Counted from the stretch's first letter, positions 1,324 to 54,011 are shown. The stretch: 64,000 nt of DNA from an uncultured Gammaproteobacteria bacterium (GCA_964364425.1 CAYIMB010000001.1:6941-70940), one strand, 5' to 3'. The notes: a model not told the origin generated them from the sequence alone. A program made the numbers and translations.

Positions 1324-4251
1324 ATGAAAGAAAAAGGACAGAAAATAGGGCCGGCGCAAGGACCATTAGCCAAGATGGAAGAGAAGATTATTGCCTTGTG
1401 GAAAGACAAGAATATTTTTGAGCAAGTCCTCAAGAAAAATGAGGGAAAGCCGTACTGGGTATTTTTTGAAGGGCCGCCTACAGCCAACGGACGTCCGGGA
1501 ATTCATCATGTCTTGGGCCGTACATATAAAGACCTGTACTTGCGTTATAAAACCATGCAAGGGTTTATGATTAAGCGCAAGGCCGGATGGGACACGCATG
1601 GTTTGCCGGTGGAACTGCAGGTGGAAAAGGAATTGGAGATTTCTGGGAAACAGTTTATTGAAAATTTGGTACCAGGTGATAAGCGCGCGTCAATTGAACT
1701 GTTCAACAAAAAATGTAAAGAGAGCGTGTGGAAGTTTAAGGATGAGTGGGAGAAGCTCACGGTGCGTTCCGGTGTTTGGCTGGATGTGCAACATCCTTTC
1801 ATCACCTATGAACGTTCATATATGGAATCTTTGTGGTGGATCTGCAAGCAACTTTGGGAAAAGGATTTGTTGTATCAAGGGCATAAGGTAGTACCGCATT
1901 GTCCGCGGTGTGAAACAACTTTGTCTACACATGAATTAGCGCAAGGGTATAAAGAGGTGACAGAAACCTCTGTGTACATGAAGTTTCAGTCGGCGGATGA
2001 TCCTCAGACCTATTTTTTGAGTTGGACTACTACGCCCTGGACTTTACCGGGAAACGTTGGGTTGGCCGTGGGACCAGAATTTACCTATGTGAAAATAAAA
2101 ACCCAAGGCAAACATGGTGAGGAATTTTGGTGGTTAACAAAAGAACGTTTGAGTATATTGGAAGGTGTGGCATATGCAGTAGTGGAAGAGAAATTGGGTA
2201 AGGATTTGGTTGGTATGAAGTATCAGCCATTATGGCCAGAAGCTATTCCGCAAGCAGCCACTCACGGAACGCGCGCCTTTGAAGTCTTGCCAGCTGCCTT
2301 TGTGACCACCACAGACGGTACCGGAATTGTGCACACGGCTGTGATGTACGGCGTAGATGACTATGAGTTAGGTGTTAAAGTTGGCTTGCCGCAAGTACAT
2401 ACGGTGAATATGAACGGAAAATTTGTTGACCATATTCCCGAGATCGGTGGAAAATTTGTTAAGGCTGAGGCAGTGGAGAAATCGATTTTAAATTATTTGG
2501 AGGAGCACAATAATTTATTCAAACAAGAAAAGTATACGCACGATTATCCTTTTTGTTGGCGCTGCTCCACGCCAGTCTTATACTACGCCAAGACCTCATG
2601 GTTTGTGCGCATGACTCAGGTGAAGAAAGAATTGTTAGAAAATAATGAAAGTGTGCACTGGGTTCCAGAGCATATCAAACATGGGCGCATGGGAGAGTGG
2701 TTGAATGAATTGAAGGATTGGGCATTCTCACGTGAACGGTATTGGGGAACGCCGTTGCCAATTTGGATTTGCGAAGGTTGTGGAGAAAAGCATGTGGTGG
2801 GGAGTATGGCAGAGGTAGAGAAGTTAGGCGGCAGACCGTTGCCGGACCCACACCGTCCGTTTGTGGATGATGTGGTTTGGTCATGTGACAAATGCGGAAA
2901 GACCATGCGCCGAATCCCGGAAGTGGCGGATGTCTGGTTTGATTCCGGAGCCATGCCCTATGCTCAATGGCATTATCCGTTTGAAGGTCAGGCAGAGGTT
3001 GGGAAGTTGGAAGAACTGAGTGGTGAACAATTCCCGGCCGACTTTATTGTGGAGGCCATAGATCAAGCTCGCGGTTGGTTTTATACCCTACTGGCCGTAT
3101 CCACTGCCTTGGGCAGGCCAGCACCTTTCAAGAATTGCTTGGTCTATGGCCACATTATGGATAAGCAAGGGAAAAAAATGTCTAAGTCCAAGGGCAATGT
3201 GGTTGACCCGTGGAGTATGATTGATGCGTATGGAGCTGATGCTACACGTTTATACTTGATGGCTGCCAGTCAGCCCTGGGACTCCAAAAACTTTGACCCA
3301 GAGGGCGTGGCTGAAACCATGCGTTCAAACATGATGATTTTGTGGAATGTCTTGGCCTTTTGGAATACATTTGTGAAAGAGGCTGGATTGAACCGTGGGG
3401 TGACTGAGACGCCAAAAGCACAACATATTTTGGACAAATGGATGTTGTCTCGCGTGTTCCAAACTCAGCAGGTCATGACCGAACAGTTGGATCAATTCCA
3501 GGTTACGGAAGTGGCTCGTCAGATTCCTGCGTTGATCACAGATTTGTCCACTTGGTACATTCGTCGTTCCAGAGACAGATTTAAAACGGGCACACCAGCC
3601 GAGCGCCAAGCCGCAGCCGACACGCTTAGCTTTGTCTTACTGACACTGGCCAAGTTGCTAGCCCCTATCACCCCATTCATAGCTGAACAGGTGTACCAAA
3701 CCGTGGGTGGCTCAACTGATTCGGTGCATTTAGAAGATTGGCCGCACATGGAAGTTCCTCAAGATGAAGCTAAAGTATTAATAGAAATGAAGGGGTTGCG
3801 TACTTGGGTGGAGCAAGCCTTAGCCTTGCGTCAGGAACAGGGGATCAAAATTCGCCAACCCTTACCCGCCCTTACTATACCGGCTAAAAATCTTGCCGCT
3901 GACTTAACTGCAGTCTTGCAGGATGAATTAAATGTGAAAGAAATACGTTTTGGTAAAATCCTAGAGCTAGATGTGAACATTACACCTGAATTAAAAGCTG
4001 AGGGCTTAGTGCGTGAGTTTACCCGGCAAGTGAATGCCTTACGCAAAAGCACCGGACTGACTGTGAAGGATATTCGTCCTCTGTACATTGAAACAACTCA
4101 AGAGCTAAAAGCGGCCATTCAGGCGCATGAAGCGTTTGTGGTGCAAACCACCAAAGCTTCTGCCCTTCATTTTGGGTCGCTTCCAGCAGATGTTACGCCC
4201 ACTCCGGTCAAGGTGGATGCCGCAGTCGCCCAAGTTGGTTTTGGGCAGTAA
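1324..4251 (+). CDS. ileS: Isoleucyl-tRNA synthetase
   Basis: HIGH-type motif PGIHHVLG, KMSKS motif, Zn-binding CWRC, editing domain, 975 aa. Confidence 0.93.
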   Translation: MKEKGQKIGPAQGPLAKMEEKIIALWKDKNIFEQVLKKNEGKPYWVFFEGPPTANGRPGIHHVLGRTYKDLYLRYKTMQGFMIKRKAGWDTHGLPVELQVEKELEISGKQFIENLVPGDKRASIELFNKKCKESVWKFKDEWEKLTVRSGVWLDVQHPFITYERSYMESLWWICKQLWEKDLLYQGHKVVPHCPRCETTLSTHELAQGYKEVTETSVYMKFQSADDPQTYFLSWTTTPWTLPGNVGLAVGPEFTYVKIKTQGKHGEEFWWLTKERLSILEGVAYAVVEEKLGKDLVGMKYQPLWPEAIPQAATHGTRAFEVLPAAFVTTTDGTGIVHTAVMYGVDDYELGVKVGLPQVHTVNMNGKFVDHIPEIGGKFVKAEAVEKSILNYLEEHNNLFKQEKYTHDYPFCWRCSTPVLYYAKTSWFVRMTQVKKELLENNESVHWVPEHIKHGRMGEWLNELKDWAFSRERYWGTPLPIWICEGCGEKHVVGSMAEVEKLGGRPLPDPHRPFVDDVVWSCDKCGKTMRRIPEVADVWFDSGAMPYAQWHYPFEGQAEVGKLEELSGEQFPADFIVEAIDQARGWFYTLLAVSTALGRPAPFKNCLVYGHIMDKQGKKMSKSKGNVVDPWSMIDAYGADATRLYLMAASQPWDSKNFDPEGVAETMRSNMMILWNVLAFWNTFVKEAGLNRGVTETPKAQHILDKWMLSRVFQTQQVMTEQLDQFQVTEVARQIPALITDLSTWYIRRSRDRFKTGTPAERQAAADTLSFVLLTLAKLLAPITPFIAEQVYQTVGGSTDSVHLEDWPHMEVPQDEAKVLIEMKGLRTWVEQALALRQEQGIKIRQPLPALTIPAKNLAADLTAVLQDELNVKEIRFGKILELDVNITPELKAEGLVREFTRQVNALRKSTGLTVKDIRPLYIETTQELKAAIQAHEAFVVQTTKASALHFGSLPADVTPTPVKVDAAVAQVGFGQ

Positions 4252-4258
4252 CTAGCGT

Positions 4259-5011
4259 ATGAGCCGCATGGTCAAAACACAAGCGGTGGTCCTGCGCCGG
4301 CGTGATCTGAAAGAACGCGACAAATTGCTGACTTTGTACACCCAGGAACACGGGAAGCTGACCGTCAGAGCTATTGGAGCCAAAAAGATTGAGTCTAAAC
4401 TGGGAGGTCATGTGGAACCGTTTATGCGCACAGAGGTGTGCTTGGTTACCTCAAAAACCATAGACATTCTGGCCGGAGCCCAAGTGGTGGAAGCGTATCC
4501 ACAACTCAGGTCTTCCATTTCTGGAACTCACGCGGCCCAATATCTGATGGAAGTGGTGGATCAACTCACCCCGGACGGTCAGCAAGAGCCGAGTGTGTAC
4601 GAGTTATTATGTAGCGGTCTGGATATTCTGAACCAACAATCTAGGGTCAATTTTTTGACCGTTCAAGCCACGGTCCTCAAGATTTTAGGTCGCCTTGGAT
4701 TTGAACCGGAGTTAGACAAATGTGTGCATTGCGCTTTACCCACAGTATCAGGTGACTACCTGTTTAACGTCAGTGCCGGTGGTGTAACACATAGTCGGTG
4801 CGGGGGAGACATTACCTGGGCGGCACCGCAAGTTCAGTTTGAAACTATTAAATCCTTGCGTTTTTCCTTGCGTTCACCTTTAGATGCTATGGCCAGCCTT
4901 AGGCTCTCGCCAATTATCTGGGAACAACTGAACACCTGTATTGATCAGCTGGTTCTGACCCATAGTCGTAAACCCATCCGCAGTCGGCTGTTCCTAGCCC
5001 AAGCCAATTAG
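4259..5011 (+). CDS. recO: DNA repair protein RecO
   Basis: N-terminal OB-fold region (AVVLRRRDLKERDKLLTLYT) and C-terminal Cys-containing segment; the size is typical of RecO. Confidence 0.8.
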   Translation: MSRMVKTQAVVLRRRDLKERDKLLTLYTQEHGKLTVRAIGAKKIESKLGGHVEPFMRTEVCLVTSKTIDILAGAQVVEAYPQLRSSISGTHAAQYLMEVVDQLTPDGQQEPSVYELLCSGLDILNQQSRVNFLTVQATVLKILGRLGFEPELDKCVHCALPTVSGDYLFNVSAGGVTHSRCGGDITWAAPQVQFETIKSLRFSLRSPLDAMASLRLSPIIWEQLNTCIDQLVLTHSRKPIRSRLFLAQAN

Positions 5012-5026
5012 TGGTATACTATCCAC

Positions 5027-6886
5027 ATGAAAAAGAAAAAACAGCATAAGCCACAGATGCCGAACCCTGAGGAAGAACCGTCCCGGTTAGATGAGGCGGA
5101 AGAAGGAGAGCAGGCTGAGGGTGAAGAGCAAATCGAGATAGAAAAAAAGTCCGAACGGGCTGAGTTTTCCACTTTACCTGTAGATACCGAGGATATTTCT
5201 GACTGGTATCATGATGATGAGTATGAGGGTAAGGTGGACATGACTAAGATTGACCGCTCGGCCAAACGGAATTGGTGGCCGTGGGTGTTTGCTTTGGTTG
5301 GTGTGCTGGTGGTGGGTGCAGCGTTGGCTTTTAGCTACGTTACGTATTTGTCCGGGCGGCCCGCGGCTGAAGGGTCTGCCCGCTTGGAGCTGTCTGTTCC
5401 GGAAAAAACTGCTTCAGGTGAAGCTGTTGTAGTGGAGGTCACGTATGAAAACTCAGACAGCGTAGATTTTAAAACCGGCAAAATAGAAGTGGTGTACCCT
5501 GAAGGTTTTGTATTTGAATCCGCCAACCCGCTGCCTACCAGCGGCCAAACTAACTGGGAGCTGGGTGTTATTCCCAGCGGACGCGGCGGGAAAATATACA
5601 TCACCGGACAATTGGTTGGAGAAGTGGGCAGCAGCAAAATATTTTCGTCTTTCTTTACCTACCGACCAGAAAACTTAAATTACGACTTTCAAGAAATTGC
5701 TCAAGCTGAGGTGGATATTTCCTCGTCTACCATTCAGATTGAAATTGACAGTCCGGAACAAGCCCATACAGGACAAGATATAGCATTAAAAGCCGAATTT
5801 AAGAACACTTCAAGCTCTCCCATTAAAGACGTGAAGGCCAAAGTGAAGCCTCCGTTAGGCTTCACTGTAACCTCAGTTGATCCGGAGGCCCCTGCGCCAG
5901 ATGATCTGTCTTGGCGTTTTGATGAAATTCAGCCAGGTGAGTCACAAACAGTGACTTTGCGCGGAACCGTTCAAGGTGAATCAGGTCAACAGCAAGCCTT
6001 CTCTTTTGAAGCCGGTTTTATAGAGATTGATGGTCGGTATAACGTGCAAGTGGAAAAACAAGCCTTGGTCTTACTCATCAATCCGTCCATAGAGCTGAAG
6101 TTGGATGCACCGGAAAAGGCGGCACCGGGCGAAAAAATCACCTATACCGTTACCGCCACCAATACATCTGATGTTCTGTTGAAAAATGTTAAACTACGTT
6201 TGCTGTTGGAGGGAGATTATTTTACAGAAGAACAGTTGGATCTGGCGGTGATAGACGAGTTGGCGGCTCAGGAGTCCAAAACAGTCACTGCCACCACCAC
6301 TTTGAAAGAATCAACTAAAGCCAGAGACTTAAGTCTGTCGGCGGTTGTATCCGTGCGTCAGGTGACGGTAGACGGAGAACAAACCACCATCACTTCCACT
6401 GCTTCAGTCAGCACGCAAGTAGAAGGTTCACTCTCTTTCTCGGCTCAAGCCAGATACTTTGATGACAATCTACAAAAGATTGGAGACGGTCCTATTCCGC
6501 CAAAAGTTGGTGACAAAACAACGTATGTGATCTGGTGGGATGTCACAAGTGGTCCATCTGACCTGAAACAGTTCACCGTGTCTGCACAACTGCCGGATGA
6601 TGTGACTTTTGAAACCAGTGATCCAGATATTACCTACACCGCAAAAACGCGTACAGTCAGTTACTCTTCCTCCGTATTTAAAGCAGACACCAGTAAACAC
6701 TTGGAGTTTTCCGTGTCCATTACGCCAACTCCAGATGACTTTAATGGTTTGATGGTACTGGTGGAAGCCGGTTCAGCCCAAGCCGTGGACACATCATCTA
6801 ACGACACCTTGACCGCAGATACAGAACGGCTCACCACTAATTTGGATGGAGACCCGGCCGCAGAAGGAAAGGGAGTAGTGGAGTAA
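5027..6886 (+). CDS. Membrane-anchored surface protein with DUF11-type (conserved repeat domain) Ig-like repeats
   Basis: Acidic N-terminus, one TM helix, then repeated ITYTVTxTN...LxGTVQGE-like modules. Confidence 0.6.
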   Translation: MKKKKQHKPQMPNPEEEPSRLDEAEEGEQAEGEEQIEIEKKSERAEFSTLPVDTEDISDWYHDDEYEGKVDMTKIDRSAKRNWWPWVFALVGVLVVGAALAFSYVTYLSGRPAAEGSARLELSVPEKTASGEAVVVEVTYENSDSVDFKTGKIEVVYPEGFVFESANPLPTSGQTNWELGVIPSGRGGKIYITGQLVGEVGSSKIFSSFFTYRPENLNYDFQEIAQAEVDISSSTIQIEIDSPEQAHTGQDIALKAEFKNTSSSPIKDVKAKVKPPLGFTVTSVDPEAPAPDDLSWRFDEIQPGESQTVTLRGTVQGESGQQQAFSFEAGFIEIDGRYNVQVEKQALVLLINPSIELKLDAPEKAAPGEKITYTVTATNTSDVLLKNVKLRLLLEGDYFTEEQLDLAVIDELAAQESKTVTATTTLKESTKARDLSLSAVVSVRQVTVDGEQTTITSTASVSTQVEGSLSFSAQARYFDDNLQKIGDGPIPPKVGDKTTYVIWWDVTSGPSDLKQFTVSAQLPDDVTFETSDPDITYTAKTRTVSYSSSVFKADTSKHLEFSVSITPTPDDFNGLMVLVEAGSAQAVDTSSNDTLTADTERLTTNLDGDPAAEGKGVVE

Positions 6887-9262: not shown

Positions 9263-9679
9263 ATGTTTGGATTGACTGGACAAGTGATAGGATTTATTGC
9301 CAAAGATATTGTTTGGAATACGGTGTATTTTCCCATTTGGTGGTACACCCGTGGGATTTTGCGTATCTTGGTGTTAATGAAGCACCAAGTGTCCAGCCTG
9401 GCCCGCACATTGCATTTACCCACGTTGTTCAAATATTTGTTGAAACCAATGTACGGCTACACAGACATCATTAGTCGGATCATCAGTTTTTACGTACGCA
9501 TAGTTCAGTTTATTGTTCTCTTGCTGATCACGTTGGTTGTGGTTGTAGGCCTGGTAGTCCTCTTAGCGGTGTGGATTACCGCGCCGGTCTTGGTTCTGTA
9601 TGGAGTTGCCTTCCACTTGGGTTGGATTGAGTTTAATCTTTATGCCTTGATTGCATGGAACGTTGGACTCCCAGTGTAG
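9263..9679 (+). CDS. Hypothetical integral membrane protein (138 aa)
   Basis: Several hydrophobic helices; lies directly upstream of the Clp-like gene. Confidence 0.5.
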   Translation: MFGLTGQVIGFIAKDIVWNTVYFPIWWYTRGILRILVLMKHQVSSLARTLHLPTLFKYLLKPMYGYTDIISRIISFYVRIVQFIVLLLITLVVVVGLVVLLAVWITAPVLVLYGVAFHLGWIEFNLYALIAWNVGLPV

Positions 9680-9684
9680 TTGGT

Positions 9685-12432
9685 ATGCAACTCCTCACCT
9701 GCCCTACATGCAGAGGATTTGGGTTTGAATTAACTCCAGGTGGAAGGCACGTCAAATGTGAACAATGCCAACATGAAGATTCGGTGATTGGGGTCATGCC
9801 GGACATGGTGCTGTACTTTTCTCGGCGCGTGAACAAGGTTTCCGTTCACGGACGCCGGTTTTTGCAATGGTTCCACCGCTTGGTGGATGTCATCTGTTTA
9901 GTTGCCGCTTTAGGCAGCCTGGGCTACGGCATCTGGTTTGTTGTCCAACAGACTGCGCAGGGTCAAGACACTCTTACGCTACTCATCACACCACACTCCA
10001 CAATCGCTTGGATTTGGGTTGGGGTGTTGCTGGTTTTATTTCTGATTTACCGGATAGCATCAGTCTCGGAACAGTTGAAAGTCTTACCTGAACTGTCTAT
10101 TGTCCAGTTACAAGAACACCGACTCACCGGCCTTAACCAGTGGCAAGCTGCTCACCAAATTAAAGGGAAGTCAAAGTTAAATTTGGCGGAATATTTAGCT
10201 GAAGACGGTATTCGGGCCATTGAAGATGCGGTCATTCTGGCAACACAGCTGAAGCATACTTCTGTCACGCCGGTGCATGTATTTGCCTCTGCCTTAAAGT
10301 CACCCCAAGCTTCCGTGGTGATAGGTCGGCTGGGGTTGGATTCAACCACGCTGATCAAGAAAGTTGCTTCAGCTTTACACCGACTAGATACCAAAGAGGC
10401 ATCCAAAGAAGTAGAGTTGTCCGCCAGTGCGCGTTCAGCCTTGGTTTTAGCCGGATACTTTGCCCGGCATGATAAGCGCCCCCGGGTAGAAGCCACTCAA
10501 CTGCTTCAAGCCACACTCCTACAAGATAAGTTGTTACAGGAAGTGTTTGAAGACATGGATGTAGATTTGCGCAGTGTATTCAACACTGTGGAATGGCTGC
10601 ACATCCAGAGCAATTTACGGGATAGGTTCAAACGCTGGCGGTCTACTCGGCGGGCCAAACCTAAGGGGATCATGAACCGGGCCATGACGGCTCGCCCCAC
10701 GCCGACCTTGGATTCCATTGGTCAGGATTACACCCAAGCCGCCCGGGCTGGCCACTTTGCCCCGCGCATTGGCCGAGATAAAGAAGTGGAGGAAGCCTTC
10801 CGGATTTTGCGTGAAGGAACGGGGAATGTACTTTTAGTGGGTGAGCCTGGCGCGGGTAAGTCGACCTTATTGGAGGGGATTGCCGAGCTGATGACTATGG
10901 AAGATGTGCCTAAAGCCTTGCAAGATAAACGGTTGGTGGTCATGGACCCGGGAGCTCTGGTGGCTGGGGCGTCTGGTGTGGGAGGCTTAGAACAACGCAT
11001 GCAAAATGTGATGCATGAAATTATCAAGGCGGGGAATGTGCTGCTTGGCATAGAAGATGTTCATCACTTGTTGGGAGCTTCCAGTGTTGGAGGGTCTGAA
11101 GATATTGGTCACCTTTTCATGAACTATTTGTCGCAAGGTTTTCTCCATGTTGTGGCCACTACCACAACGGAAGAGTTTCAAAAATATATCCAACCCCAGG
11201 AGACATTTTTACGTCGCTTTCAAATTGTGAAAGTGGGTGAACTGCCGCCGGAGGACGCCTTGCGGGTACTCATGGGCCGGTCTGGCATGGTGGAATACAA
11301 AGCAAAAGTATTTTTCTCGTATGCCGCACTGGCGGCATGTGTGGACCTCAGTGATAGGTATATCAAAGACCGCTATCTGCCGTCTAAAGCTTTGGACATT
11401 ATGGAAGAGGCCGCTTTGTACGCGGCGGAAAAACGTGGAGAGAAAACCATTGTGACTAAAGAAGATGTAGCCGCAGTGGTGAGTGAAAAAACCAACGTGC
11501 CAGTGACTTCAGTCGGAGCAGGGGAAGCGCAGCGTTTGTTGAATCTGGAACAAATTATGCATCAACGCATAGTCGGCCAAGATGATGCCATCTCAGCTAT
11601 TAGCTCCGCTATGCGCCGGGCGCGTGAGGAGCTGCGTGATATGAAGCGTCCCATTTCAAGCTTTTTGTTTTTAGGACCAACTGGTGTGGGTAAAACAGAA
11701 ACCGCTAAAACCCTGGCCCAAGTATACTTTGGGCAAGAAGAGCAGATGGTTCGGATTGATATGTCTGAATATCAGAATCAATATTCTTTGGACAAGCTGA
11801 TTGGCGCCTCAGGGCAACAGGGTCATTTGACTGAAGCGGTCAGGCAAAAACCATTTAGCGTTCTGTTATTTGATGAAGTGGAAAAAGCGCATCCGGATGT
11901 GTTGAATATTCTACTCCAACTCTTGGATGACGGACGGTTGACTGAAGGCACTGGCAAGACCATTGATTTTACCAACACCATTGTGATTGCTACCTCTAAC
12001 GCCGCCTCGGCACAAATTCAGCAAGCTTTCAGCGGTGGTGTGTCTTTAGAGGAGTTGAAACGTCAGTTGTTAGAGCAAGATTTACTCAAGTATTTCAGAC
12101 CTGAGTTGTTAAATCGATTTGACCATGTCACGGTCTTTACGCCTTTGAGTTTTAATGAAATCCTAGAGGTCACCCGCCGGCAGTTACAGGGAGTGGCCGA
12201 ATTAGTCGCTAAAAAGGGCATTTTCTTGGAGTTTTCTGACGAGGCCGTCCAAGATTTGGCCACCAAAGGCTATGATCCCAAGTTTGGCGCCCGGCCGCTC
12301 AGGCGCCTCATTCAGGACACGGTTGACGACGCCTTGGCAAAACTCCTATTAGAACATAAACTAAACCGTAGAGACGTCGTAGTTCTCCAAGCCGGCGGCC
12401 TCATGACTATTCGTAAAGCACAACAATTATGA
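9685..12432 (+). CDS. ClpA/ClpC-type double AAA+ unfoldase with N-terminal zinc ribbon and two TM helices (alternative start at 9655)
   Basis: CPTC...CEQC zinc ribbon, two hydrophobic helices, Clp_N-like repeats, and two AAA modules with Walker A motifs GEPGAGKST and GPTGVGKTE. No long M-domain and no IGF/VGF ClpP-docking tripeptide could be seen. Confidence 0.85.
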   Translation: MQLLTCPTCRGFGFELTPGGRHVKCEQCQHEDSVIGVMPDMVLYFSRRVNKVSVHGRRFLQWFHRLVDVICLVAALGSLGYGIWFVVQQTAQGQDTLTLLITPHSTIAWIWVGVLLVLFLIYRIASVSEQLKVLPELSIVQLQEHRLTGLNQWQAAHQIKGKSKLNLAEYLAEDGIRAIEDAVILATQLKHTSVTPVHVFASALKSPQASVVIGRLGLDSTTLIKKVASALHRLDTKEASKEVELSASARSALVLAGYFARHDKRPRVEATQLLQATLLQDKLLQEVFEDMDVDLRSVFNTVEWLHIQSNLRDRFKRWRSTRRAKPKGIMNRAMTARPTPTLDSIGQDYTQAARAGHFAPRIGRDKEVEEAFRILREGTGNVLLVGEPGAGKSTLLEGIAELMTMEDVPKALQDKRLVVMDPGALVAGASGVGGLEQRMQNVMHEIIKAGNVLLGIEDVHHLLGASSVGGSEDIGHLFMNYLSQGFLHVVATTTTEEFQKYIQPQETFLRRFQIVKVGELPPEDALRVLMGRSGMVEYKAKVFFSYAALAACVDLSDRYIKDRYLPSKALDIMEEAALYAAEKRGEKTIVTKEDVAAVVSEKTNVPVTSVGAGEAQRLLNLEQIMHQRIVGQDDAISAISSAMRRAREELRDMKRPISSFLFLGPTGVGKTETAKTLAQVYFGQEEQMVRIDMSEYQNQYSLDKLIGASGQQGHLTEAVRQKPFSVLLFDEVEKAHPDVLNILLQLLDDGRLTEGTGKTIDFTNTIVIATSNAASAQIQQAFSGGVSLEELKRQLLEQDLLKYFRPELLNRFDHVTVFTPLSFNEILEVTRRQLQGVAELVAKKGIFLEFSDEAVQDLATKGYDPKFGARPLRRLIQDTVDDALAKLLLEHKLNRRDVVVLQAGGLMTIRKAQQL

Positions 12433-13094
12433 CCATGAGTTTTGAAAAATCGTTCGGGTTTGTATTTAAAGATCCGAACTGGGTAAAAAAGTTAGTGATT
12501 GGAACGGTATTTGTTTTACTCACTCCGTTTTTGATTGGAATCCCGTTCATGTCTGGTTACATGATTCGGATTATTCGCCAGCGCTTACAAGGAAAAGAAG
12601 GTTTACCAGAGTGGGATGATATGGGCAGTCTATTTGTGGACGGGATGAAAACTCTGTTCATAGGGTTGGTATATGCTTTACCAGTGGTCGTTGTGGCTTT
12701 TGGTTTGGCTATACTCATGTTCATTGTGGGAGAAGTTGACAGTGATGCCGGAGCCTTTATGGGCTTGTTATTTTTACCTTTCCAAGGACTGAGCATGCTC
12801 TACTCTTTGTTCATTATTCTCATGCATCCACATATTTATTATGTTATTGCTACTGACGCTCCGCTGAGTCAGGCGTTTCATGTGAGAAAGTATTTTCAAG
12901 TGTTGAAAGTAGAATGGTCAAACGTGTTGATTGCCTTACTGATGGTTTGGTTGGCTGGGGCCCTGGCTTGGTTTGGTATATTTGTGTTTATTATTGGCTT
13001 CTTTATTGCTTTGGCCTACGTCAACATGGTGACTGGTGATGTCTACGGACGCTTATTGCAAGATTGGAAGTCCAGAGGATTACTCACCGCTTAA
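12429..13094 (+). CDS. DUF4013-like integral membrane protein
   Basis: FKDPNW N-terminal signature and multiple TM helices. Overlaps the Clp-like gene by 4 nt. Confidence 0.55.
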   Translation: MTMSFEKSFGFVFKDPNWVKKLVIGTVFVLLTPFLIGIPFMSGYMIRIIRQRLQGKEGLPEWDDMGSLFVDGMKTLFIGLVYALPVVVVAFGLAILMFIVGEVDSDAGAFMGLLFLPFQGLSMLYSLFIILMHPHIYYVIATDAPLSQAFHVRKYFQVLKVEWSNVLIALLMVWLAGALAWFGIFVFIIGFFIALAYVNMVTGDVYGRLLQDWKSRGLLTA

Positions 13095-21483: not shown

Positions 21484-23160
21484 ATGCCAGGAGGGATTTC
21501 AGAATTAGCCGTGGTCATGGGCTTGGCTGCTGTGTTGGGAATTATTCTTCGTCTATTTAAACAACCGTTAATTTTGGCGTATGTAGCGACCGGAGCTTGC
21601 ATAGGCTTATTTGGATTATTCCAGCTTCCGGACAAAGAAACATTTCAAATCTTTTCAGATCTAGGTATTATGTTTCTCCTGTTCTTGGTTGGATTGGAGA
21701 TGAATTATGCTTCACTCAAGGTGGTAGGCAAGGCTTCCATCATAGTTGGGCTAGCGCAGATTATGTTAACCGCCCTGATTGCCTTGGGGATTGCCCTGAT
21801 CTTCCGCTTCAGCTTACTTGAGTCTGCCTACATCAGTGCAGCTTTGACCTTCTCCAGCACTATTATTGTAGTGAAGTATCTTTCGGATAAAAAGGACGTA
21901 AATAGTCTGTATGGAAAAATCAGTGTTGGGGTGTTATTGGTCCAAGACGCGGTGGCTATTTTGACTCTGTTTTTCCTGACTAGCTTTTTAACCGAATCAG
22001 CCGTTCAGGTGACGCAAGCCTTGACCACTATTGGTTTTGGAATTCTGTTATTCATGTGTATTTTCTTGATTGGACGGTTTTTGTTGCCACCGCTGATGCG
22101 CTCAATTGGGCGTTCTCCCGAATTAGTCTTTGTGGTCAGCTTAGCGTGGTTATTTCTAGTGGTGGGCGCAGTGCACCAACTAGGATTTTCTTTAGAAATT
22201 GGAGGCTTTTTGGCTGGTGTCGCCTTGGCCCAAAGCGCAGAACACATGCAGATTGCTCACCGCATAGGAGCTTTGCGCGACTTTTTTCTCCTCATCTTCT
22301 TTGTCATCCTTGGCTCCTCCTTAATCTATGCTGACTTTCAGGGGTTGTTTGTTCCCATTCTCACACTCACCCTATTTGTACTGATAGGCAAACCGTTAGC
22401 CGTCATGGGAATTATGGGCTTCTTGGGGTATAGAAAACGAACCAGCTGGTTGACCAGTGTAACTCTTGGACAGGTGTCTGAGTTCAGTTTAATTTTGGTT
22501 GCGTTAGGCTTGCAACTTGAACATATCTCAAACCAAGTGGTGAGCCTGGTGACCGCTGTAGCTATTTTGACTATTACTTTTTCCACGTATGAAATGATGT
22601 ACGCAGATAAAGTGGCCAACAAGCTTTCCAGCCTTTTATCTGTGTTTGAAAGAAAGGTGACCAAGGAACCGCATTGGTCAACACAGAAAATTAAGAAGCC
22701 AATTATCTTGATTGGCGCTCACCGGACTGGCCAAAGTATTTTGGCTAACCTACCCATGGAGGAAGCCTTGGTCATAGATTTTGACCCTGAATTAATACAG
22801 CATTTAAAACAACGCGGATATAAAACTTTATTTGGAGATATTAGTGACCCAGAAGTTTTTGAAGCAGCTAGGTTTGGTCAAGCAGAATTAGTCATCTCAA
22901 CCAGCCCAGATATTGAAGACAATGTGTTACTGTTAGAAAAAATTCGGAAGCTGAGACGTCACCCCTTAGTTATTTTACGGGCAGAAACAGAGCGAGAAGC
23001 TGAAGTACTGTATAAACAAGGCGCGGACTACGTGCTCCTCCCGCACTTTACCTCCGGATATTACATTGGCCTAGCCTTGTCCAAGAATCGCACAGCCAAA
23101 AAACTCCATGCTTTGAGGAAAAAAGACGAAAAAATGTTGAACTTACAGGTCGTGTCCTGA
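21484..23160 (+). CDS. Cation:proton antiporter (CPA2/Kef-type) with C-terminal RCK/TrkA-N domain
   Basis: About 12 TM helices followed by a Rossmann-like RCK domain. Confidence 0.8.
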   Translation: MPGGISELAVVMGLAAVLGIILRLFKQPLILAYVATGACIGLFGLFQLPDKETFQIFSDLGIMFLLFLVGLEMNYASLKVVGKASIIVGLAQIMLTALIALGIALIFRFSLLESAYISAALTFSSTIIVVKYLSDKKDVNSLYGKISVGVLLVQDAVAILTLFFLTSFLTESAVQVTQALTTIGFGILLFMCIFLIGRFLLPPLMRSIGRSPELVFVVSLAWLFLVVGAVHQLGFSLEIGGFLAGVALAQSAEHMQIAHRIGALRDFFLLIFFVILGSSLIYADFQGLFVPILTLTLFVLIGKPLAVMGIMGFLGYRKRTSWLTSVTLGQVSEFSLILVALGLQLEHISNQVVSLVTAVAILTITFSTYEMMYADKVANKLSSLLSVFERKVTKEPHWSTQKIKKPIILIGAHRTGQSILANLPMEEALVIDFDPELIQHLKQRGYKTLFGDISDPEVFEAARFGQAELVISTSPDIEDNVLLLEKIRKLRRHPLVILRAETEREAEVLYKQGADYVLLPHFTSGYYIGLALSKNRTAKKLHALRKKDEKMLNLQVVS

Positions 23161-24732
23161 GTAAGACAGGTTGAAGGATTTATTGCACAGGGGGAAATCA
23201 GGAATGATATTACCTAATACACACCAGGCCAGAGCATCCCAGTTGTGGAAGCCGGCGTCTCTGATTTTTACCCGGTTAATTTTACCTTGAGAATCAGTCA
23301 TCACCACATACTGTAATTCACCCCTATTTGATTCCACACAGCTCCAACCAAAACTATTCGGGTTAAGGTCTACGCTCGTTTGTATTTCGCCAGCTTGTTT
23401 TAAGCCCGACAAGCACTGTTCTATGATGTGAATGGATTCAAGCAATTCATCCCGGCGCAGAAGGAAGCGAGCCAGCACATCTCCTTCTTTTCTGACTGGA
23501 ACGGTAAATTGGATTTTGGCGTATTGCCAGGTGGGAAAGTCTCGTCTGGCATCAATATGTATGCCTGAAGCCCGGGCTCCAACCCCAACAACTCCTAAAT
23601 CTTCAGCCACCTGTTTCTTCAATAGGCCGGTTGTTTCCAAGCGGTCAAGAGCACTAGGCATGGCCAAAACAATCTTTAGAATCTCATTCATTTCTGCAGC
23701 AATGCGTTTGAGCTCAGCCAGCAAGCGGTGTTGCTGGTCTTGGGTAAGGTCTTGTTTCACCCCGCCTAGAGTATTTACTCCCCGTAAAAATCGACTTCCC
23801 GTCAGCTCACGGTTGAGTTCAAGTAATTGTTCACGTAAGCGCCAGAGTTGGGAAGCGCCAAAATTGCAACCAATACCAACATTCATGTTGGCCAGGTCAT
23901 GCAAGTGAGTGTTCACCCGCTCTAGCTCCAGGAAAATCATGCGCAACCATTGGGCTCTGATGGGAATAGTCACACCCGCGGCATCTTCTACAGCAGCACA
24001 CAGCCCTGCGGAGTGGGCTATACTGTTGTCGCCAGAGATTTGTTCACTTAAATGGAGCCACTTGTCCTGGGGTAGGTGTTCAAACAATTTTTCCACCCCC
24101 CGGTGTTTCCAGCCAAGACGAATTTCTAAGTTCTGAATAGGTTCTCCGGCCACTTGGAAACGGAAATGGCCTGGTTCAATCACACCAGCGTGAATGGGGC
24201 CCACCGGAACCTCATATATTCCTTCACCCTCATAGCGTTTAAATGGATATGGTCTGGCGTCAGGCGTGCGTTTGACCGGAGCGTTCCAAGCCACATCTTT
24301 GCGTAAAGGAAAAAAGTCCGTCGGCCAATCACTGTGAGCAATGACAGATTTTAGTTCTGGGTGGTTGGAGGGAATCAAACCAAACATATCCCAAATATCC
24401 CGCTCATACCTGGCGGCAGCTACAGACAGGGCGGCGAGGCTGTGGTATTCAGATGATTGTTCCGGAACAACTGTACGTAGGATCAAGATCGATTTTTCTG
24501 CGTCTACTGACCAGATCAAGTACAGTCCAAACCCCTTGCTCTGAACACGTTCGTCCGTAGCAAAGTAATTAGACACGCGGGCGTGGGTGAAGGTTCGCTT
24601 CACGGCTGAAGCCACTTGGTACCACGTCTCAACGGGAACGGTGAATTGGTAACGGTCACCGTTCTGCTCAATACTTTGAGCCAAGTGCGGCCAATCCGCT
24701 AAGGTTTTGTTGAGTTGGTCAACCAGTGTCAT
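23143..24732 (-). CDS. Fused NuoC/NuoD-like (HycE/HyfG-like) large subunit without Ni-Fe ligand cysteines
   Basis: NuoC-like N-terminus (ERYERDIWDMFGL) and large-subunit core (GPIHAGVIEPGHFRF...WKHRGVEKL). The L1 motif reads QISGDNS in place of R-x-CGxC-G, and the C-terminus reads DFPLCNKS in place of DPCxxC. Confidence 0.85.
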   Translation of the reverse strand: MTLVDQLNKTLADWPHLAQSIEQNGDRYQFTVPVETWYQVASAVKRTFTHARVSNYFATDERVQSKGFGLYLIWSVDAEKSILILRTVVPEQSSEYHSLAALSVAAARYERDIWDMFGLIPSNHPELKSVIAHSDWPTDFFPLRKDVAWNAPVKRTPDARPYPFKRYEGEGIYEVPVGPIHAGVIEPGHFRFQVAGEPIQNLEIRLGWKHRGVEKLFEHLPQDKWLHLSEQISGDNSIAHSAGLCAAVEDAAGVTIPIRAQWLRMIFLELERVNTHLHDLANMNVGIGCNFGASQLWRLREQLLELNRELTGSRFLRGVNTLGGVKQDLTQDQQHRLLAELKRIAAEMNEILKIVLAMPSALDRLETTGLLKKQVAEDLGVVGVGARASGIHIDARRDFPTWQYAKIQFTVPVRKEGDVLARFLLRRDELLESIHIIEQCLSGLKQAGEIQTSVDLNPNSFGWSCVESNRGELQYVVMTDSQGKINRVKIRDAGFHNWDALAWCVLGNIIPDFPLCNKSFNLSYSGHDL

Positions 24733-24736
24733 AGAG

Positions 24737-26242
24737 TTAGTAGTTTAATACCAGTTCGGTTAATTTAGCCAGGTATACGGTAAGGCCCAACGGCAGCATG
24801 AGGCCAAGTCCCAGCATGAGCGTTCCGTTTAAGATCATAGCCGCACTGTTCCAAGCTGAAATGCGTACACCTTCCGGAGTATGAACGTGACCATTGTCAT
24901 CCGTTGTGTCTGATACCGGTTTGTGGTTAAACACCAAGCGCATGAGGTTGTATAAGAATCCGACAAAGACAATGACCAACAGGCCCAAGAGCAGCCAGAG
25001 CATCCACCCAGGTGCGTCACTGAGCCCCCAGAGTAAACTAAACTTGCTCAGGAAAATACTGAACGGGGGGAATCCGGTCATGGCCACGGCTGCCAGCATA
25101 AGAGCTAGGCCGGTCATGGGCATAACCTTCATTAAATTTGAAATGTTGGGGATTTTGGTTGATTGGTATTTTAGGAGCACATTTCCGGCGGCAAAGAAAG
25201 AAAAACTTTTGGCAATAGAATGGTTAATGACTTGGAATAAAGCGGCAAAGACACCAAGCGGGGTGGCGAGCGCTAAGCCAATCACAATCAAACCCATGTT
25301 CTCTATGGAACTATAGGCAAACAAACGTTTGTAGTTGTTCTGTCTGAGCAAAGACAGAGCAGCAATCCCTACAGACAAGAAACCTAAAATATACAGTAAT
25401 GTTCCGGTAAATTCTGTGCCTACGGATAAGTCTGAAATCATTTTAACCCTAATCAGAGCAAATAACGCTACGTTGAGCAACACAGCTGAAAGGAGTGCGC
25501 TGATTGGAGTAGGAGCTTTACCATGCGCATCTGGCAACCACGTGTGCATAGGCACCAAACCAATTTTGGTGCCGTATCCAATCAACAAGAAGACAAAGGC
25601 AATTTTGACTAATTCAGGGTTTAACTCACTGCCTAAACTGTGTAAGTGTGTCCACAGGAGTGTGCTGGCTTCTTCTCCTCCGGCGTTTAACCCAGAGAAG
25701 TAGAGCAGCACTGTTCCGGCCAAGGCTAAGGTCAGGCCTACCGAGCTCATGATGACGTACTTCCAAGCGGCCTCAATGCTTTGTTTGTGTCTGTAAATGC
25801 CAACTAAGAATGCGCTAGCTAAGGTTGTTGCTTCAACACCCACCCAGAGTAAGCCTAAGTTGTTGCTACTCACAGCTAAACTCATGGCCAACAAAAAGAC
25901 GTTGTACAAGACGTAATACAATTTCACCTGTCTGGCGTCCATTTCCTGTTGTGCCTCTTCTGTTTTCACATACCCAATAGAGTACAAAGTGACGGAGAAA
26001 CCAATGAACGCAATTAACGCCAAGAAGAAGAATGACAGGGGATCAATGTATAACAAATCACCAAACAACCCCAGACTTTGGTCTACACTCACCACCTCCC
26101 GGTACAAGAAATACATACTCCCAATAGACACCAGACTTGAAGCTAAAGTGGCTGTCTCAAAGATGACCCGTTTCCGTGTGGCCAAACACACCAGCGCGGC
26201 AACCAGTGGAGCAATCAGATATAACCAGTAGACAAGTGTCAT
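24737..26242 (-). CDS. NuoM/N / HyfF-like antiporter-type membrane subunit
   Basis: About 14 TM helices and the Mrp/NuoLMN antiporter-family pattern. Confidence 0.8.
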   Translation of the reverse strand: MTLVYWLYLIAPLVAALVCLATRKRVIFETATLASSLVSIGSMYFLYREVVSVDQSLGLFGDLLYIDPLSFFFLALIAFIGFSVTLYSIGYVKTEEAQQEMDARQVKLYYVLYNVFLLAMSLAVSSNNLGLLWVGVEATTLASAFLVGIYRHKQSIEAAWKYVIMSSVGLTLALAGTVLLYFSGLNAGGEEASTLLWTHLHSLGSELNPELVKIAFVFLLIGYGTKIGLVPMHTWLPDAHGKAPTPISALLSAVLLNVALFALIRVKMISDLSVGTEFTGTLLYILGFLSVGIAALSLLRQNNYKRLFAYSSIENMGLIVIGLALATPLGVFAALFQVINHSIAKSFSFFAAGNVLLKYQSTKIPNISNLMKVMPMTGLALMLAAVAMTGFPPFSIFLSKFSLLWGLSDAPGWMLWLLLGLLVIVFVGFLYNLMRLVFNHKPVSDTTDDNGHVHTPEGVRISAWNSAAMILNGTLMLGLGLMLPLGLTVYLAKLTELVLNY

Positions 26243-26243
26243 A

Positions 26244-26894
26244 TTAGTCTTCCTTCAACTCACTTAATTTTTCTGTATCTGTGGAGTGCATGAGTGTATT
26301 CATCCGGGCGGTCAACAGAGAGAGAATGGTAATGCCTAAGACCACATCTACCAATAGGCCTAGTTCCACCACCGCCGGTAAGCCTAACGTTGTGGCTATG
26401 GCTAACAAGAATACACCGTTTTCCAAAACTAGAAAGCCAACCATCTGACTCAAAGCTGCGCGTTGTGAAATGACCATCAGGAAGCCCAAGAAGATCAAAG
26501 ACATGGCCACCACCAACTGCCACTCACCATGGGGTGAAATAACTGAAGCAACGGGCTGGACAATAAAGTAGGAGAACACAATCAGTAAGCCGCCAATTAA
26601 GGCGATTGGCGCCGGGTTAATGACCGTTGGGGCTTTCAGGGCCGGTTTCAGACGCTTCAACAACAGGAGCAATCCACAGGGGATAGCCACAGCCTTTACT
26701 CCAATGGTGAGTAAAGCGGTCAGCCACAGGTGTTGTTGTCCTAAGTTCACCGCCACAAGGATGGTAATGATGCCAACTAGCGCGGCCTGTCCAATATATA
26801 AGTAGACTTGTGATCTAAAGATTGGCCTGACCAGCATGATCAAGGTAATAAACAGAACTAAACCGGTAAACCATTGAATAAAGTCAGTTATCAT
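26244..26894 (-). CDS. HyfE-like small membrane subunit
   Basis: 216 aa, polytopic, in the position of hyfE between the HyfC-like and HyfF-like genes. Confidence 0.6.
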   Translation of the reverse strand: MITDFIQWFTGLVLFITLIMLVRPIFRSQVYLYIGQAALVGIITILVAVNLGQQHLWLTALLTIGVKAVAIPCGLLLLLKRLKPALKAPTVINPAPIALIGGLLIVFSYFIVQPVASVISPHGEWQLVVAMSLIFLGFLMVISQRAALSQMVGFLVLENGVFLLAIATTLGLPAVVELGLLVDVVLGITILSLLTARMNTLMHSTDTEKLSELKED

Positions 26895-27838
26895 AAGCTT
26901 GCAAAGAGTTGAGTTACTAGGGCAATCATGGCCACCACCCAGCCCATACCCAGGAGTGCCGGTACTCTGAGCAAGCGCATTTTAGCCATAGAAGACTCCA
27001 CCAAGGCAATGAGGATAGCTAAGATGAACACTTTTCCTAACCAGAGGACTGTCCCAAGCAACACTGCGCTTAACGTCCACTCCGTAGCCATGCCCCAAGG
27101 CACAACTAAGCTAGCCAAAATGCTCAACATCACCGTGAGTTTAGTCATACTCCCAATCTCCATTAAGGCCAGGTTTTTTCCGGAATTTTCCAAGATCATG
27201 GCTTCATGTACCATGGTGAGCTCTAAGTGTGTGGTTGGGTTATCAAAGGGATAACGGGCATTTTCCGCCAGGGTGATGAGGAAAAAAGACAAGAAGACCA
27301 AAATCAAGGCTGGGTCTAACCAGGCATGTGGGGTGCCTAAGACATGACTGATTATTTCCCCAGGGTAGGTAGATCCTCCGGTCAAGGCTAAAGCAAACAA
27401 GGCAGTAATAAAGACTGGTTCAGCCAAGGCGCTGATCATGGCCTCTCTAGAAGAACCCATGCCTCCAAAGGTCGTCCCTGCGTCCAAGCCGGACAGGACC
27501 AAGAAAGCAGTACCCAGGACCAGAATAAAACCGACAAAAATCATATCAGCCTGAGCGCCAAGGTTGGTGACGTTTGGAAGTAAAAATGCAGCTGTTGCGG
27601 TGGTTCCAAACACCATATATGGGGCGAGTTTAAACACCCAGGAGGTCACATCAGACACCACAGCATCTTTACGGATAAATTTGAGAATATCTCGGTATCC
27701 CTGGAGCAAGGGAGCGCCAACGCGTCCTTGCAGACGAGCTTTGACTTTACGTATAACCCCCGTGACCAGAGGCGCAACGGTCAGCAGCAGCAGACCTTGA
27801 GCGAGAGAAATCAGAATGGCTTGTGTTGTCTGAGTCAT
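26891..27838 (-). CDS. NuoH / HycD / HyfC-like membrane subunit
   Basis: N-terminal GxIRKxKARLQGRxGxPLLQxYRDxLK signature. Confidence 0.85.
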   Translation of the reverse strand: MTQTTQAILISLAQGLLLLTVAPLVTGVIRKVKARLQGRVGAPLLQGYRDILKFIRKDAVVSDVTSWVFKLAPYMVFGTTATAAFLLPNVTNLGAQADMIFVGFILVLGTAFLVLSGLDAGTTFGGMGSSREAMISALAEPVFITALFALALTGGSTYPGEIISHVLGTPHAWLDPALILVFLSFFLITLAENARYPFDNPTTHLELTMVHEAMILENSGKNLALMEIGSMTKLTVMLSILASLVVPWGMATEWTLSAVLLGTVLWLGKVFILAILIALVESSMAKMRLLRVPALLGMGWVVAMIALVTQLFASL

Positions 27839-29925: not shown

Positions 29926-30464
29926 ACAGAGGTTGTTTTAGCGGCCAGACGGTCAACGGCAGCCAAGAGTCCGGCCAACAGATCTGAAGGGGTTGGTGGG
30001 TTTCCAGGAATCCAGATATCCACAGGCAAGACCGCATCCACGCCACCAACAATTCCGTAAGAACCCTTAAAAATACCACCGTCTTTAGCGTTATCTCCAA
30101 AAGCCACCACAATTTTAGGTGTTGGCATGGCGTTATACGCACGTTTTAAGGCCTCTTCCATATTTCGTGAGACCGGACCGCTGACTAACAACATATCTGC
30201 GTGCCTAGGCGAAGCAGCCACATGAATACCATAGCGTTCCATATCATAGTAGGGGTTGGCCAACATATTCACTTCAACCTCTTCCGCGTTGCTGGAACCC
30301 GGATCAACCTCACGGATATGCAAAGAACGGCCAATCAGCCGTTTTATTTTTTGACTTAACTCCCCACGCAGCAGTTCAATATCTTTTGGAACAGCGGCTT
30401 CCTGAGCGAATTTTTTTTTGGTCACTACCCCGTTTAAGAGGCTTTTTTTGAGCAACTGAAACAT
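29922..30464 (-). CDS. NuoB / HycG-like small subunit lacking all four [4Fe-4S] cysteine ligands
   Basis: Conserved NuoB scaffold (ASPRHADMLLVSGPV...YNAMPxPKxVxAFG...GGVDxxLPVDIWIPGxPP). The four Cys positions read P, S/A, N and N. Confidence 0.85.
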   Translation of the reverse strand: MFQLLKKSLLNGVVTKKKFAQEAAVPKDIELLRGELSQKIKRLIGRSLHIREVDPGSSNAEEVEVNMLANPYYDMERYGIHVAASPRHADMLLVSGPVSRNMEEALKRAYNAMPTPKIVVAFGDNAKDGGIFKGSYGIVGGVDAVLPVDIWIPGNPPTPSDLLAGLLAAVDRLAAKTTSV

Positions 30465-38150: not shown

Positions 38151-38159
38151 GTGGGAAGT

Positions 38160-42864: not shown

Positions 42865-42986
42865 ATGTGACTTATACTGTTTTTTTGGGTATATCAGGCC
42901 TGACCCCTTGATTTTATATCGATTTTCAGCTATTATCTCTGGCCATCATGGAAGGAATTCCGTGCTCTGCAACCCAGGAGACTCCC

Positions 42987-43244
42987 ATGTTGCAACCCCT
43001 CATGTTTCTTGTCCTCGTCATGGGGCTGTTCGCCGCCCCGTCCACCGCCAACGCCCGGCCGCCCAAGCACCACCAGGCGGCGGCGAGTCACCACGTCCGC
43101 GCCTACGGCCACCACCGCCCGCCCCCGACCCGCATCTACGGCATGCACACCCCGCTGCCCATCCCGCCCGCGGGCATGAAGTGGTACTACAAGGACGGGT
43201 CCAAGGGCCACTACTGGTACCTGGCCCCGGCGCCGGCCTACTAG
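42987..43244 (+). CDS. Small secreted protein (85 aa), paralog of the C-terminus of 42221-42814, encoded with near-100 % GC3 codons
   Basis: AGGAG Shine-Dalgarno 6 nt upstream of the ATG. Signal peptide MLQPLMFLVLVMGLFAAPSTANA, His-rich middle, C-terminal GMHTPLPIPPAGMKWYYKDGSKGHYWY. Confidence 0.6.
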   Translation: MLQPLMFLVLVMGLFAAPSTANARPPKHHQAAASHHVRAYGHHRPPPTRIYGMHTPLPIPPAGMKWYYKDGSKGHYWYLAPAPAY

Positions 43245-43375
43245 GGCCAGCCTGTCCAGCCCACATCCCGCTGCACCTTGCCATGTTGCGGGTCGAATGG
43301 AGCTTCTTCGGAAGCACCTTCGGCCCGCACCTCGTCTCTCTTTTCAAATATACAACAAACCTTTATCATGCCTCC

Positions 43376-51285: not shown

Positions 51286-54011
<2,726 letters not shown>

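Follow-up and report, generated by a model that had tools for sequence, protein, structure and literature searches.

Clp/Hsp100 proteins are textbook soluble threading machines. The locus described here raises the question of what such a protein does when it is fixed in a membrane. It lies in a stretch of 64,000 nucleotides (64 kb, hereafter the window) from an uncultured Gammaproteobacteria bacterium (GCA_964364425.1 CAYIMB010000001.1:6941-70940), where three co-oriented open reading frames (ORFs) fill positions 9263-13094 of the plus strand. The first encodes a small membrane protein (9263-9679; 138 amino acids, aa), the second a membrane-anchored, Clp/Hsp100-like protein with two AAA+ modules, D1 and D2 (9655-12432; 925 aa from the first ATG), and the third a polytopic membrane protein of the DUF4013 family (12429-13094; 221 aa). 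An earlier reading of the same DNA (the original prediction) had already placed the three ORFs at these positions, and had taken the middle product for a membrane-tethered unfoldase serving membrane protein extraction or quality control. Our analysis supported the assignment of this product as a membrane-tethered class-I Clp/Hsp100 paralog. Judging from its sequence and that of its relatives, it would be a ClpP-independent, D2-driven, non-processive membrane remodeler that works with its small partner, a reading to which we give a probability of about one half. A classical threading unfoldase it probably is not.

The Clp protein and its N-terminal membrane module

The Clp protein contains two Clp-type AAA+ modules and a C-terminal D2-small domain, as expected of class I, and was matched by the Pfam families AAA_2 (E = 4e-54), ClpB_D2-small (6e-21) and AAA_lid_9 (1.3e-11). 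Its best sequence matches in the PDB were ClpC and ClpB (E ~1e-141 to 1e-130), and the ClpC proteins of S. aureus and B. subtilis (E ~1e-141 to 1e-136) were the top matches in sequence and structure. ClpC and ClpB were also the best structural matches when an AlphaFold2 (AF2) model of the protein, with a mean predicted local distance difference test (pLDDT) score of 84, was searched with Foldseek. The NCBIfam models of ClpB, ClpA, ClpV, ClpK and ClpG were matched far under their cutoffs, the top one being ClpB with 604 bits against a cutoff of 1232.

Conservation was counted in two sets: 130 full-length members of the family, and 69 independent sequences from species genomes. Residue numbers of the parts of the Clp protein are those of a 915-aa form counted from position 9685, and all of these parts lie on the plus strand. 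The N-terminus carries a four-cysteine zinc ribbon (9685-9819, residues 1-45), with the cysteine pairs CPTC at 9700-9711 and CEQC at 9757-9768. Among 26 homologs, C6, C9 and C25 were invariant and C28 was nearly so; all four cysteines were present in 57/69 independent homologs. In the AF2 model the region is beta-rich (pLDDT 82-90).

The zinc ribbon is followed by a transmembrane (TM) hairpin at 9883-10059, comprised of TM1 (9883-9945), a short outside loop and TM2 (10003-10059). Hydropathy placed the hydrophobic helices at residues 67-87 and 107-125, and the AF2 model has helices at 51-91 and 105-129. At least one TM helix was predicted in every one of the 69 independent homologs and at least two in 61 of them, the median loop in the family being 21 aa long. 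In members with two predicted helices, lysines and arginines together averaged 3.5 ahead of TM1, 2.0 within the loop and 3.2 behind TM2. This positive-inside bias supports an N-in/C-in hairpin, with the zinc ribbon as well as the ATPase on the cytoplasmic side. Thus, the N-terminal zinc ribbon and the two helices ahead of the Clp_N region, both part of the original prediction, were confirmed.

A linker of ~35 residues, modeled with low confidence, joins the hairpin to a Clp_N-like N-domain (10183-10653, residues 167-323), which forms eight helices in the model (pLDDT about 90). The ClpA profile aligns from residue 187, the Hsp104 N-domain in the PDB aligns as well, and homologs of the protein carry PF02861. 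These observations back a match that in Pfam itself is weak: Clp_N repeats, in the plural, had been predicted, and Pfam recovered a single repeat, scoring 19.3 bits where 20.7 were required. The N-domain is connected to D1 through a family-specific linker motif, KPKGIMNRAMTA (10657-10692), in which P326, M330, R332, T335 and A336 are invariant. In its general form, KPKGxMNRAMTA, the motif was 62-99% conserved in 196 members, with the threonine and alanine above 90%, and ranks among the best-conserved stretches of the family. It is absent from canonical Clp paralogs. Its residues 326-335 are predicted to be disordered (pLDDT below 50), and it may serve in docking or at the mouth of the pore.

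Two start codons were considered for the Clp gene. With ATG 9655 the product has 925 aa and the gene overlaps the small gene by 25 nt; with ATG 9685 the product has 915 aa and a gap of 5 nt separates the two genes. ATG 9655 is the likely start, since relatives start with MERWTP and since in L003, a locus of 74% identity, the codon corresponding to 9685 is not an ATG. Neither form has the 916 aa given originally. Overlaps of 4 nt had been reported on both sides of the gene, and the downstream one exists, as an ATGA shared with the DUF4013 gene. The upstream one does not, because the codon at the position required is GTA, which is not a start codon. Translational coupling of the Clp gene to the small gene is supported. 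Promoter and terminator scans gave chance-level results only, and the operon boundaries could not be placed. A 14-nt inverted repeat (9607-9620 and 9736-9749; 93% complementary, 115 nt apart) flanks the stop of the small gene and the start region of the Clp gene; it may be a coupling structure or may be due to chance.

Could the TM helices result from a start placed too far upstream? In each of the three ORFs, and likewise within the first 150 Clp codons, the window and L003 differed mostly at third codon positions. This bias indicates purifying selection on all three ORFs, including that stretch. The TM region and the N-terminal extension are therefore coding, and a misannotated start is ruled out as the source of the helices.

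Nucleotide sites, pore loops and missing contacts of the ATPase

The D1 nucleotide site and pore loop (10840-11058) were compared with S. aureus ClpC in a residue-level alignment. Walker A, GEPGAGKST (10840-10866), is intact, and its lysine was retained in 117/130 full-length members and 59/69 independent homologs. The pore loop VAGASGVGGLEQRM (10960-11001) has no tyrosine and carries SGV where ClpC has KYR; a K-Y-R loop was found in 0/130 and 0/69. Walker B reads I-E-D (GIED, 11050-11058) where ClpC has IDE, and the DE pair was present in one full-length member (1/130) and in none of the independent homologs (0/69).

The D2 motor core (11674-11877) consists of Walker A (GPTGVGKTE, 11674-11700), a truncated pore loop and Walker B (F-D-E, 11869-11877). 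The arginine finger and sensor 2 follow at 12112-12306 (NRFD, 12112-12123; GARPLRR, 12286-12306) and are conserved in the family. In the window protein Walker A, Walker B, sensor 1, the arginine finger and sensor 2 of D2 are all canonical. The Walker B DE pair was kept in 130/130 and 69/69, and in about 200 sequences Walker A, Walker B, sensor 2 and the arginine finger were essentially invariant.

The D2 pore loop reads GASGQQG (11803-11823), where ClpC has GAPPGYVGHDDGG. It is six residues shorter than the canonical loop, with the gap opposite PGYVGHDDGG of ClpC, and the deletion takes out the tyrosine. A loop shortened by six residues is also the modal state of the family, G[YFW] being found in 24/130 full-length members and 7/69 independent homologs. 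On a rough neighbor-joining tree rooted with canonical paralogs, the pore aromatic underwent at least 16 state changes, and the window protein fell inside a large block without it. Within the short loop, G707 and G713 are invariant and the glycine-rich turn GxxG[QE]xG is conserved. The invariant glycines argue for a selected turn and not for decay. In summary, of the features expected of class I, aromatic pore loops are missing from both D1 and D2, and a catalytic Walker B is missing from D1.

Four related genomes have a canonical soluble Clp paralog near the membrane Clp pair (L047:3225-5900 on the plus strand; L054:3215-5848, L060:2823-5510 and L073:3171-5810 on the minus strand). By strict pattern matching, KFRGEFE and the Y[ST]IGF loop were present in 4/4 of these paralogs, and FIDELH and GSPPGYIG in 3/4 each. 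The L047 paralog, the one inspected for it, has the long M-domain coiled coil too. Because the canonical paralogs keep these motifs, the losses are specific to the membrane paralog and are not due to general drift in these genomes. The IGF-bearing paralogs also suggest that ClpP exists in the phylum.

Next, we considered the two contacts by which Clp proteins are told apart. The segment in which ClpA, ClpC and ClpX hold the ClpP-docking loop (11998-12093) is of about ClpB length, with 31 aa compared with 37 in S. aureus ClpC. It contains no [LIV]-G-[FL] and shows a gap opposite the FAGFGG loop of S. aureus ClpC; the Y[ST]IGF of the canonical Patescibacteria paralogs falls in this same place. 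In the AF2 model it forms a helix, a turn and a helix (residues 775-783 and 788-802). No conserved ClpP tripeptide was found across the 130 full-length members. An AGF in two close relatives (P0002 and P0003) was considered as a relic ClpP loop and rejected: it occupies the position of the ClpB-type IQERFG helix, is not conserved and comes without the loop insertion. As for the M-domain, the ClpB profile aligned in two stretches that skip it, the query was contiguous where ClpC and ClpB have their insert, and the AF2 model contained no long coiled coil. The original prediction had seen neither an IGF/VGF docking loop nor a ClpB-type M-domain. The first absence held in the ClpC alignment, the 130-member census and the AF2 model, and the second in the ClpB profile, the PDB alignments and the same model. 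With no docking loop the membrane Clp would not feed ClpP, and with no M-domain it would not be coupled to DnaK as ClpB is.

The small partner and a possible mechanism

The small membrane protein has three motifs in its N-terminal helical region (P24-x-W-W-Y-x-x-G31, P62-M-x-G65 and R72/S75/R79) and a C-terminal hydrophobic region at about residues 80-125. In an alignment of 59 sequences, P24, W26, W27, Y28, G31, P62, M63, S75 and R79 were invariant. The AF2 model is all-helical (mean pLDDT 93) and had no significant fold match in the PDB, and the sequence had no match in Pfam or NCBIfam. DUF4873 gave weak matches in 19/59 homologs (best E = 6e-4), below any threshold, and was set aside as uninformative. 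The family comprises 1306 clusters, and the matches listed with a named source all belong to Patescibacteria, or candidate phyla radiation (CPR), lineages.

In the species-genome loci that extend downstream (77/77, a count that leaves out three contigs ending at the locus), the nearest gene on the upstream side of the membrane Clp gene was always the small gene, as it was in 8/8 loci looked up by protein. The 138-aa membrane protein originally noticed beside the Clp gene is thus a constant neighbor, and this gene order marks it as the apparent obligate partner of the membrane Clp. In PADLOC the ATPase had only partial, generic AAA-domain matches and neither membrane protein had any, and the module was accordingly not classed as a defense system.

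The two-gene module occurs across Patescibacteria, the ultra-small CPR bacteria. Full-length homologs of the Clp protein at 37-95% identity formed a distinct group (P0001-P0053), the weakest member of which scored 661 bits, whereas the best match outside it reached 483 bits. Searched exhaustively, the N-terminal 345 residues gave 221 cluster representatives (50% identity) at E <= 1e-3, and 395 matches were found in a collection holding one genome per species. A word-index search with the N-terminal part only gave nothing despite the presence of 95%-identical homologs, a limitation of that tool. Loci were located with alignment A3, since alignment A4 was too diverse for the purpose. Full-text literature searches returned no description of a membrane-integral Clp/Hsp100 protein or of the Patescibacteria family. 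Many of the pair loci among L010-L089 have record titles reading 'uncultured Gammaproteobacteria', and single ones read Bdellovibrionales, Acutalibacteraceae and Vicinamibacterales. The non-Patescibacteria titles look like mis-assigned metagenome-assembled genomes (MAGs) with the same synteny.

The third gene belongs to DUF4013, as had been proposed (PF13197, 86.4 bits against a cutoff of 26.9, E = 2.6e-24), and its product has at least four hydrophobic segments by hydropathy. Among about 85 loci, L003 and L012 were the only ones to share with the window a DUF4013 gene behind the pair. With only 2 of about 85 other loci sharing it, DUF4013 was rejected as a core partner, and is a lineage-specific third gene. 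The gene downstream of the pair in L005 (249 aa) was examined as another DUF4013 and rejected. A more frequent neighbor encodes a GT4 transferase (Glycos_transf_4, WecA/TagO/MraY-type), a membrane-bound polyprenyl-phosphate glycosyl-1-phosphate transferase, which came next after the pair in 33/80 species-genome loci (within L021-L089), often at less than 30 nt; one example is L059:9053-10126. L090, a single MAG, encodes an in-frame fusion (3001-6696) in which GT4 is attached behind the Clp C-terminus and lacks the transferase's first TM helix, an arrangement consistent with the topology. The wider block consists of DUF11/CLIPPER, TGT and the pair, followed either by GlyRS and an M16 peptidase or by GT4, DUF192 and L21. 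Since this is a housekeeping gene order, adjacency by itself says little about function. Genes for TGT and for an Ig-like surface protein (DUF11/CLIPPER) repeatedly precede the pair, in the window (5027-6886, plus strand) and in L002, L003, L007 and L090, which points to a long-conserved gene order.

How might the membrane Clp work? An N-in/C-in two-helix hairpin, with the zinc ribbon ahead of it, would hold the ATPase on the cytoplasmic face of the membrane, and the N-domain/D1 face of the presumed ring would be turned toward the bilayer. D1 would bind nucleotide without being a conserved hydrolase and without a gripping loop, and is most likely an assembly or scaffold ring, leaving D2 as the putative sole motor. 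The short, glycine-rich D2 loop, having no aromatic or hydrophobic residue, probably serves non-processive remodeling of a membrane-associated partner or client. Torsin is a membrane-associated Clp/Hsp100 relative that lacks aromatic pore loops and depends on a cofactor (PMC5425593). D2 hydrolysis would drive work on the partner or client by the logic of Torsin and its membrane cofactor, and not by hand-over-hand threading. The N-terminal helical region of the small protein, predicted to be cytoplasmic, would be the likeliest partner in docking or regulation. A polytopic membrane protein may be the client, given that the pair is followed by DUF4013 here and by GT4 in many other lineages.

Among the alternatives, the one that survives best is that the tethered protein threads proteins out of the bilayer, as an FtsH without a protease or in the manner of Msp1, with the small protein as its adaptor. 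The FtsH-like topology, with a two-helix anchor before the AAA+ body, agrees with this, as do the fully conserved D2 ATPase, the canonical D2 GAPPGY of 24/130 and 7/69 members and the polytopic membrane genes adjoining the pair. For ClpB, the principal motor of threading has been described as D2 (PMC6593972). However, neither pore loop of the window protein has an aromatic or hydrophobic tip, the D2 loop is 6 aa shorter, and D1 is catalytically degenerate. The loss of the tip is the majority state and arose repeatedly, which suggests a conserved function independent of the loop, and classical processive threading is unlikely here. We consider threading rather unlikely overall. Thus, of the original claim of a membrane-tethered unfoldase, the tethered class-I Clp stands and the word unfoldase is not supported, the pore tyrosine being absent from both rings. 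A device that extracts membrane proteins by threading is unlikely in the case of the window protein and possible for the GAPPGY minority.

A translocase, proposed purely by analogy with Bcs1, seems quite improbable. Here 12 TM helices and copies of the small protein would form a conduit, and a widened pore without tyrosines would pass bulky or folded cargo across the membrane or into it. The obligate membrane partner, the shortened glycine-rich pore loops in both rings and a ring axis presumably normal to the membrane would suit such a role, but no conserved cargo gene lies beside the pair, the external loop is short at about 21 aa, and the small protein has no fold similarity to channel subunits. 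That the protein is a protease component, handing substrates to ClpP or another peptidase by a non-canonical contact, would agree with the name that databases give to its relatives, 'ATP-dependent Clp protease ATP-binding subunit', and with related genomes probably encoding ClpP, as judged from their canonical paralog with an IGF loop. It is made very improbable by the missing [LIV]-G-[FL] loop in a segment of about ClpB length with a predicted helix-turn-helix, by the lack of a conserved tripeptide across the 130 members, by the absence of ClpP from the 64-kb window, and by the lack of a peptidase gene conserved beside the pair. A decaying paralog or pure scaffold, whose ATPase function is irrelevant, might account for the degenerate D1 motifs and pore loops, but is scarcely credible against the near-invariant D2 Walker A/B, sensor 2 and arginine finger in about 200 sequences, a codon-position pattern of purifying selection and strict gene pairing across hundreds of species.

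Several points weigh against the non-processive remodeler that we prefer. Its loss of threading is deduced from pore-loop sequences, and with GAPPGY kept by 7/69 to 24/130 members, threading could yet be the activity of the ancestor or of the family in general. Substrate contact could also involve the disordered linker KPKGxMNRAMTA. The low-confidence linker of ~35 residues between the TM hairpin and the N-domain makes direct force transfer into the membrane doubtful, and hexamer formation is assumed from homology. A mirror-tree comparison with partial correlation between the Clp domains and the small protein gave nearly equal partial r values for the TM hairpin, N-domain and D1 (0.41-0.43) and a lower one for the zinc ribbon (0.22), and did not single out a contact domain. 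Finally, as GT4 and DUF4013 adjoin the pair within a housekeeping gene order and the fusion is a single case, the idea that they are clients is weak. A fuller proposal is tentative: the membrane Clp may be a widespread bacterial Hsp100 descendant turned non-threading, membrane-embedded ATP motor, comparable in its logic to Torsin with a cofactor, that, together with its obligate small subunit, remodels, gates or assembles polytopic envelope proteins such as GT4.

The rest of the window and the known AAA+ machines

Elsewhere in the window, a GyrB gene (51315-54011, plus strand) is split by an intein, its Intein_splicing domain being flanked by the GyrB and Toprim domains. A UvrD/AddA-type helicase-nuclease with a PD-(D/E)XK C-terminus (38151-42182, plus strand) also carries an intein/Hint insertion. 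On the minus strand, a run of ORFs at 23143-30464 looks like an Mrp/NADH-quinone-type antiporter cluster; its Proton_antipo_M protein (27835-29925) was the only ORF scanned that had a match. A CarS-like protein of the CDP-archaeol synthase family (PF01864) is encoded at 54026-54586 (plus strand), in a bacterial genome, beside nusG and the gene for ribosomal protein L1. An 889-aa protein (42908-45577, plus strand) had weak matches to HerA/DUF87 and TrwB-type coupling-protein ATPases, and may be a secretion or DNA-translocation ATPase. No tRNA genes and no Rfam families at gathering score were found in the 64-kb window, and a repeat scan of it returned nothing relevant.

Where does the membrane Clp stand among known systems? 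It shares with ClpC and ClpA the order of N-domain, D1, D2 and D2-small and, as in ClpA, has no M-domain of ClpB length. It differs from them in its membrane N-terminus and zinc ribbon, in the absence of the ClpP tripeptide loop, the ClpC M-domain and the pore tyrosine, and in the ED of its D1 Walker B. Like ClpB and Hsp104 it has no ClpP loop and a segment after sensor 1 of about ClpB length; unlike them it has no coiled-coil M-domain or pore tyrosines, and it has a membrane anchor. ClpE is a Firmicutes Clp ATPase with an N-terminal zinc finger, and the CxxC...CxxC ribbon ahead of a double AAA+ body is a likeness to it. Five soluble zinc-ribbon relatives (P0070-P0074), which we take to be ClpE-like, lack TM helices and have preserved KYRGELEE, MDEL, GAPPGYVG and an LGF loop. 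The window protein, in contrast, has TM helices and none of these four motifs.

FtsH has been described as the only known bacterial membrane-anchored AAA+ protease family (PMC8943139). The likeness to FtsH is one of topology only and not of homology: in both, an N-in terminus and a pair of TM helices precede the AAA+ ring on the cytoplasmic side. In FtsH a single AAA module of the classical clade is combined with an M41 protease, and the external domain is sizeable, whereas the window protein has two Clp modules, no protease and a loop of about 21 aa. Peptidase_M41 was not among the Pfam matches listed for the protein (the best 25 of 40), Clp-type domains reach its C-terminus, and an FtsH core query gave only chance-level matches to the window. 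The parallel with Torsin and LAP1/LULL1 is a functional analogy with no family tie, and consists in a Clp-D2-like ATPase, the lack of aromatic pore loops and a membrane cofactor. Torsin is eukaryotic and lumenal, with a single AAA module and without its own arginine finger, whereas the window protein keeps NRFD and GARPLRR in D2 and has two AAA modules. Msp1/ATAD1, an extractase, and Bcs1, a translocase of folded proteins, have an N-terminal TM anchor and a ring facing the membrane, and the window protein resembles them in being anchored by N-terminal TM helices with its ring presumably toward the membrane. Each of them has a single AAA module of another clade, with no homology beyond the AAA+ fold, and Msp1 depends on aromatic pore loops, unlike the window protein. 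Thus, the membrane Clp lacks what defines ClpA and ClpC (the ClpP loop), ClpB (the M-domain), ClpE (solubility and the ClpP loop) and FtsH (M41).

In conclusion, one large bacterial radiation holds a second kind of membrane-integral AAA+ machine, derived from Hsp100 and tied to a previously unrecognized family of small membrane proteins. This corrects the systematic mis-annotation of the family as a subunit of the Clp protease. If it is true that the protein does not thread, it would be a natural experiment in the repurposing of a Clp motor and a tractable bacterial analog of Torsin-type mechanisms. It is also among the few conserved, lineage-specific membrane machines of these largely uncultured episymbionts that are biochemically approachable.

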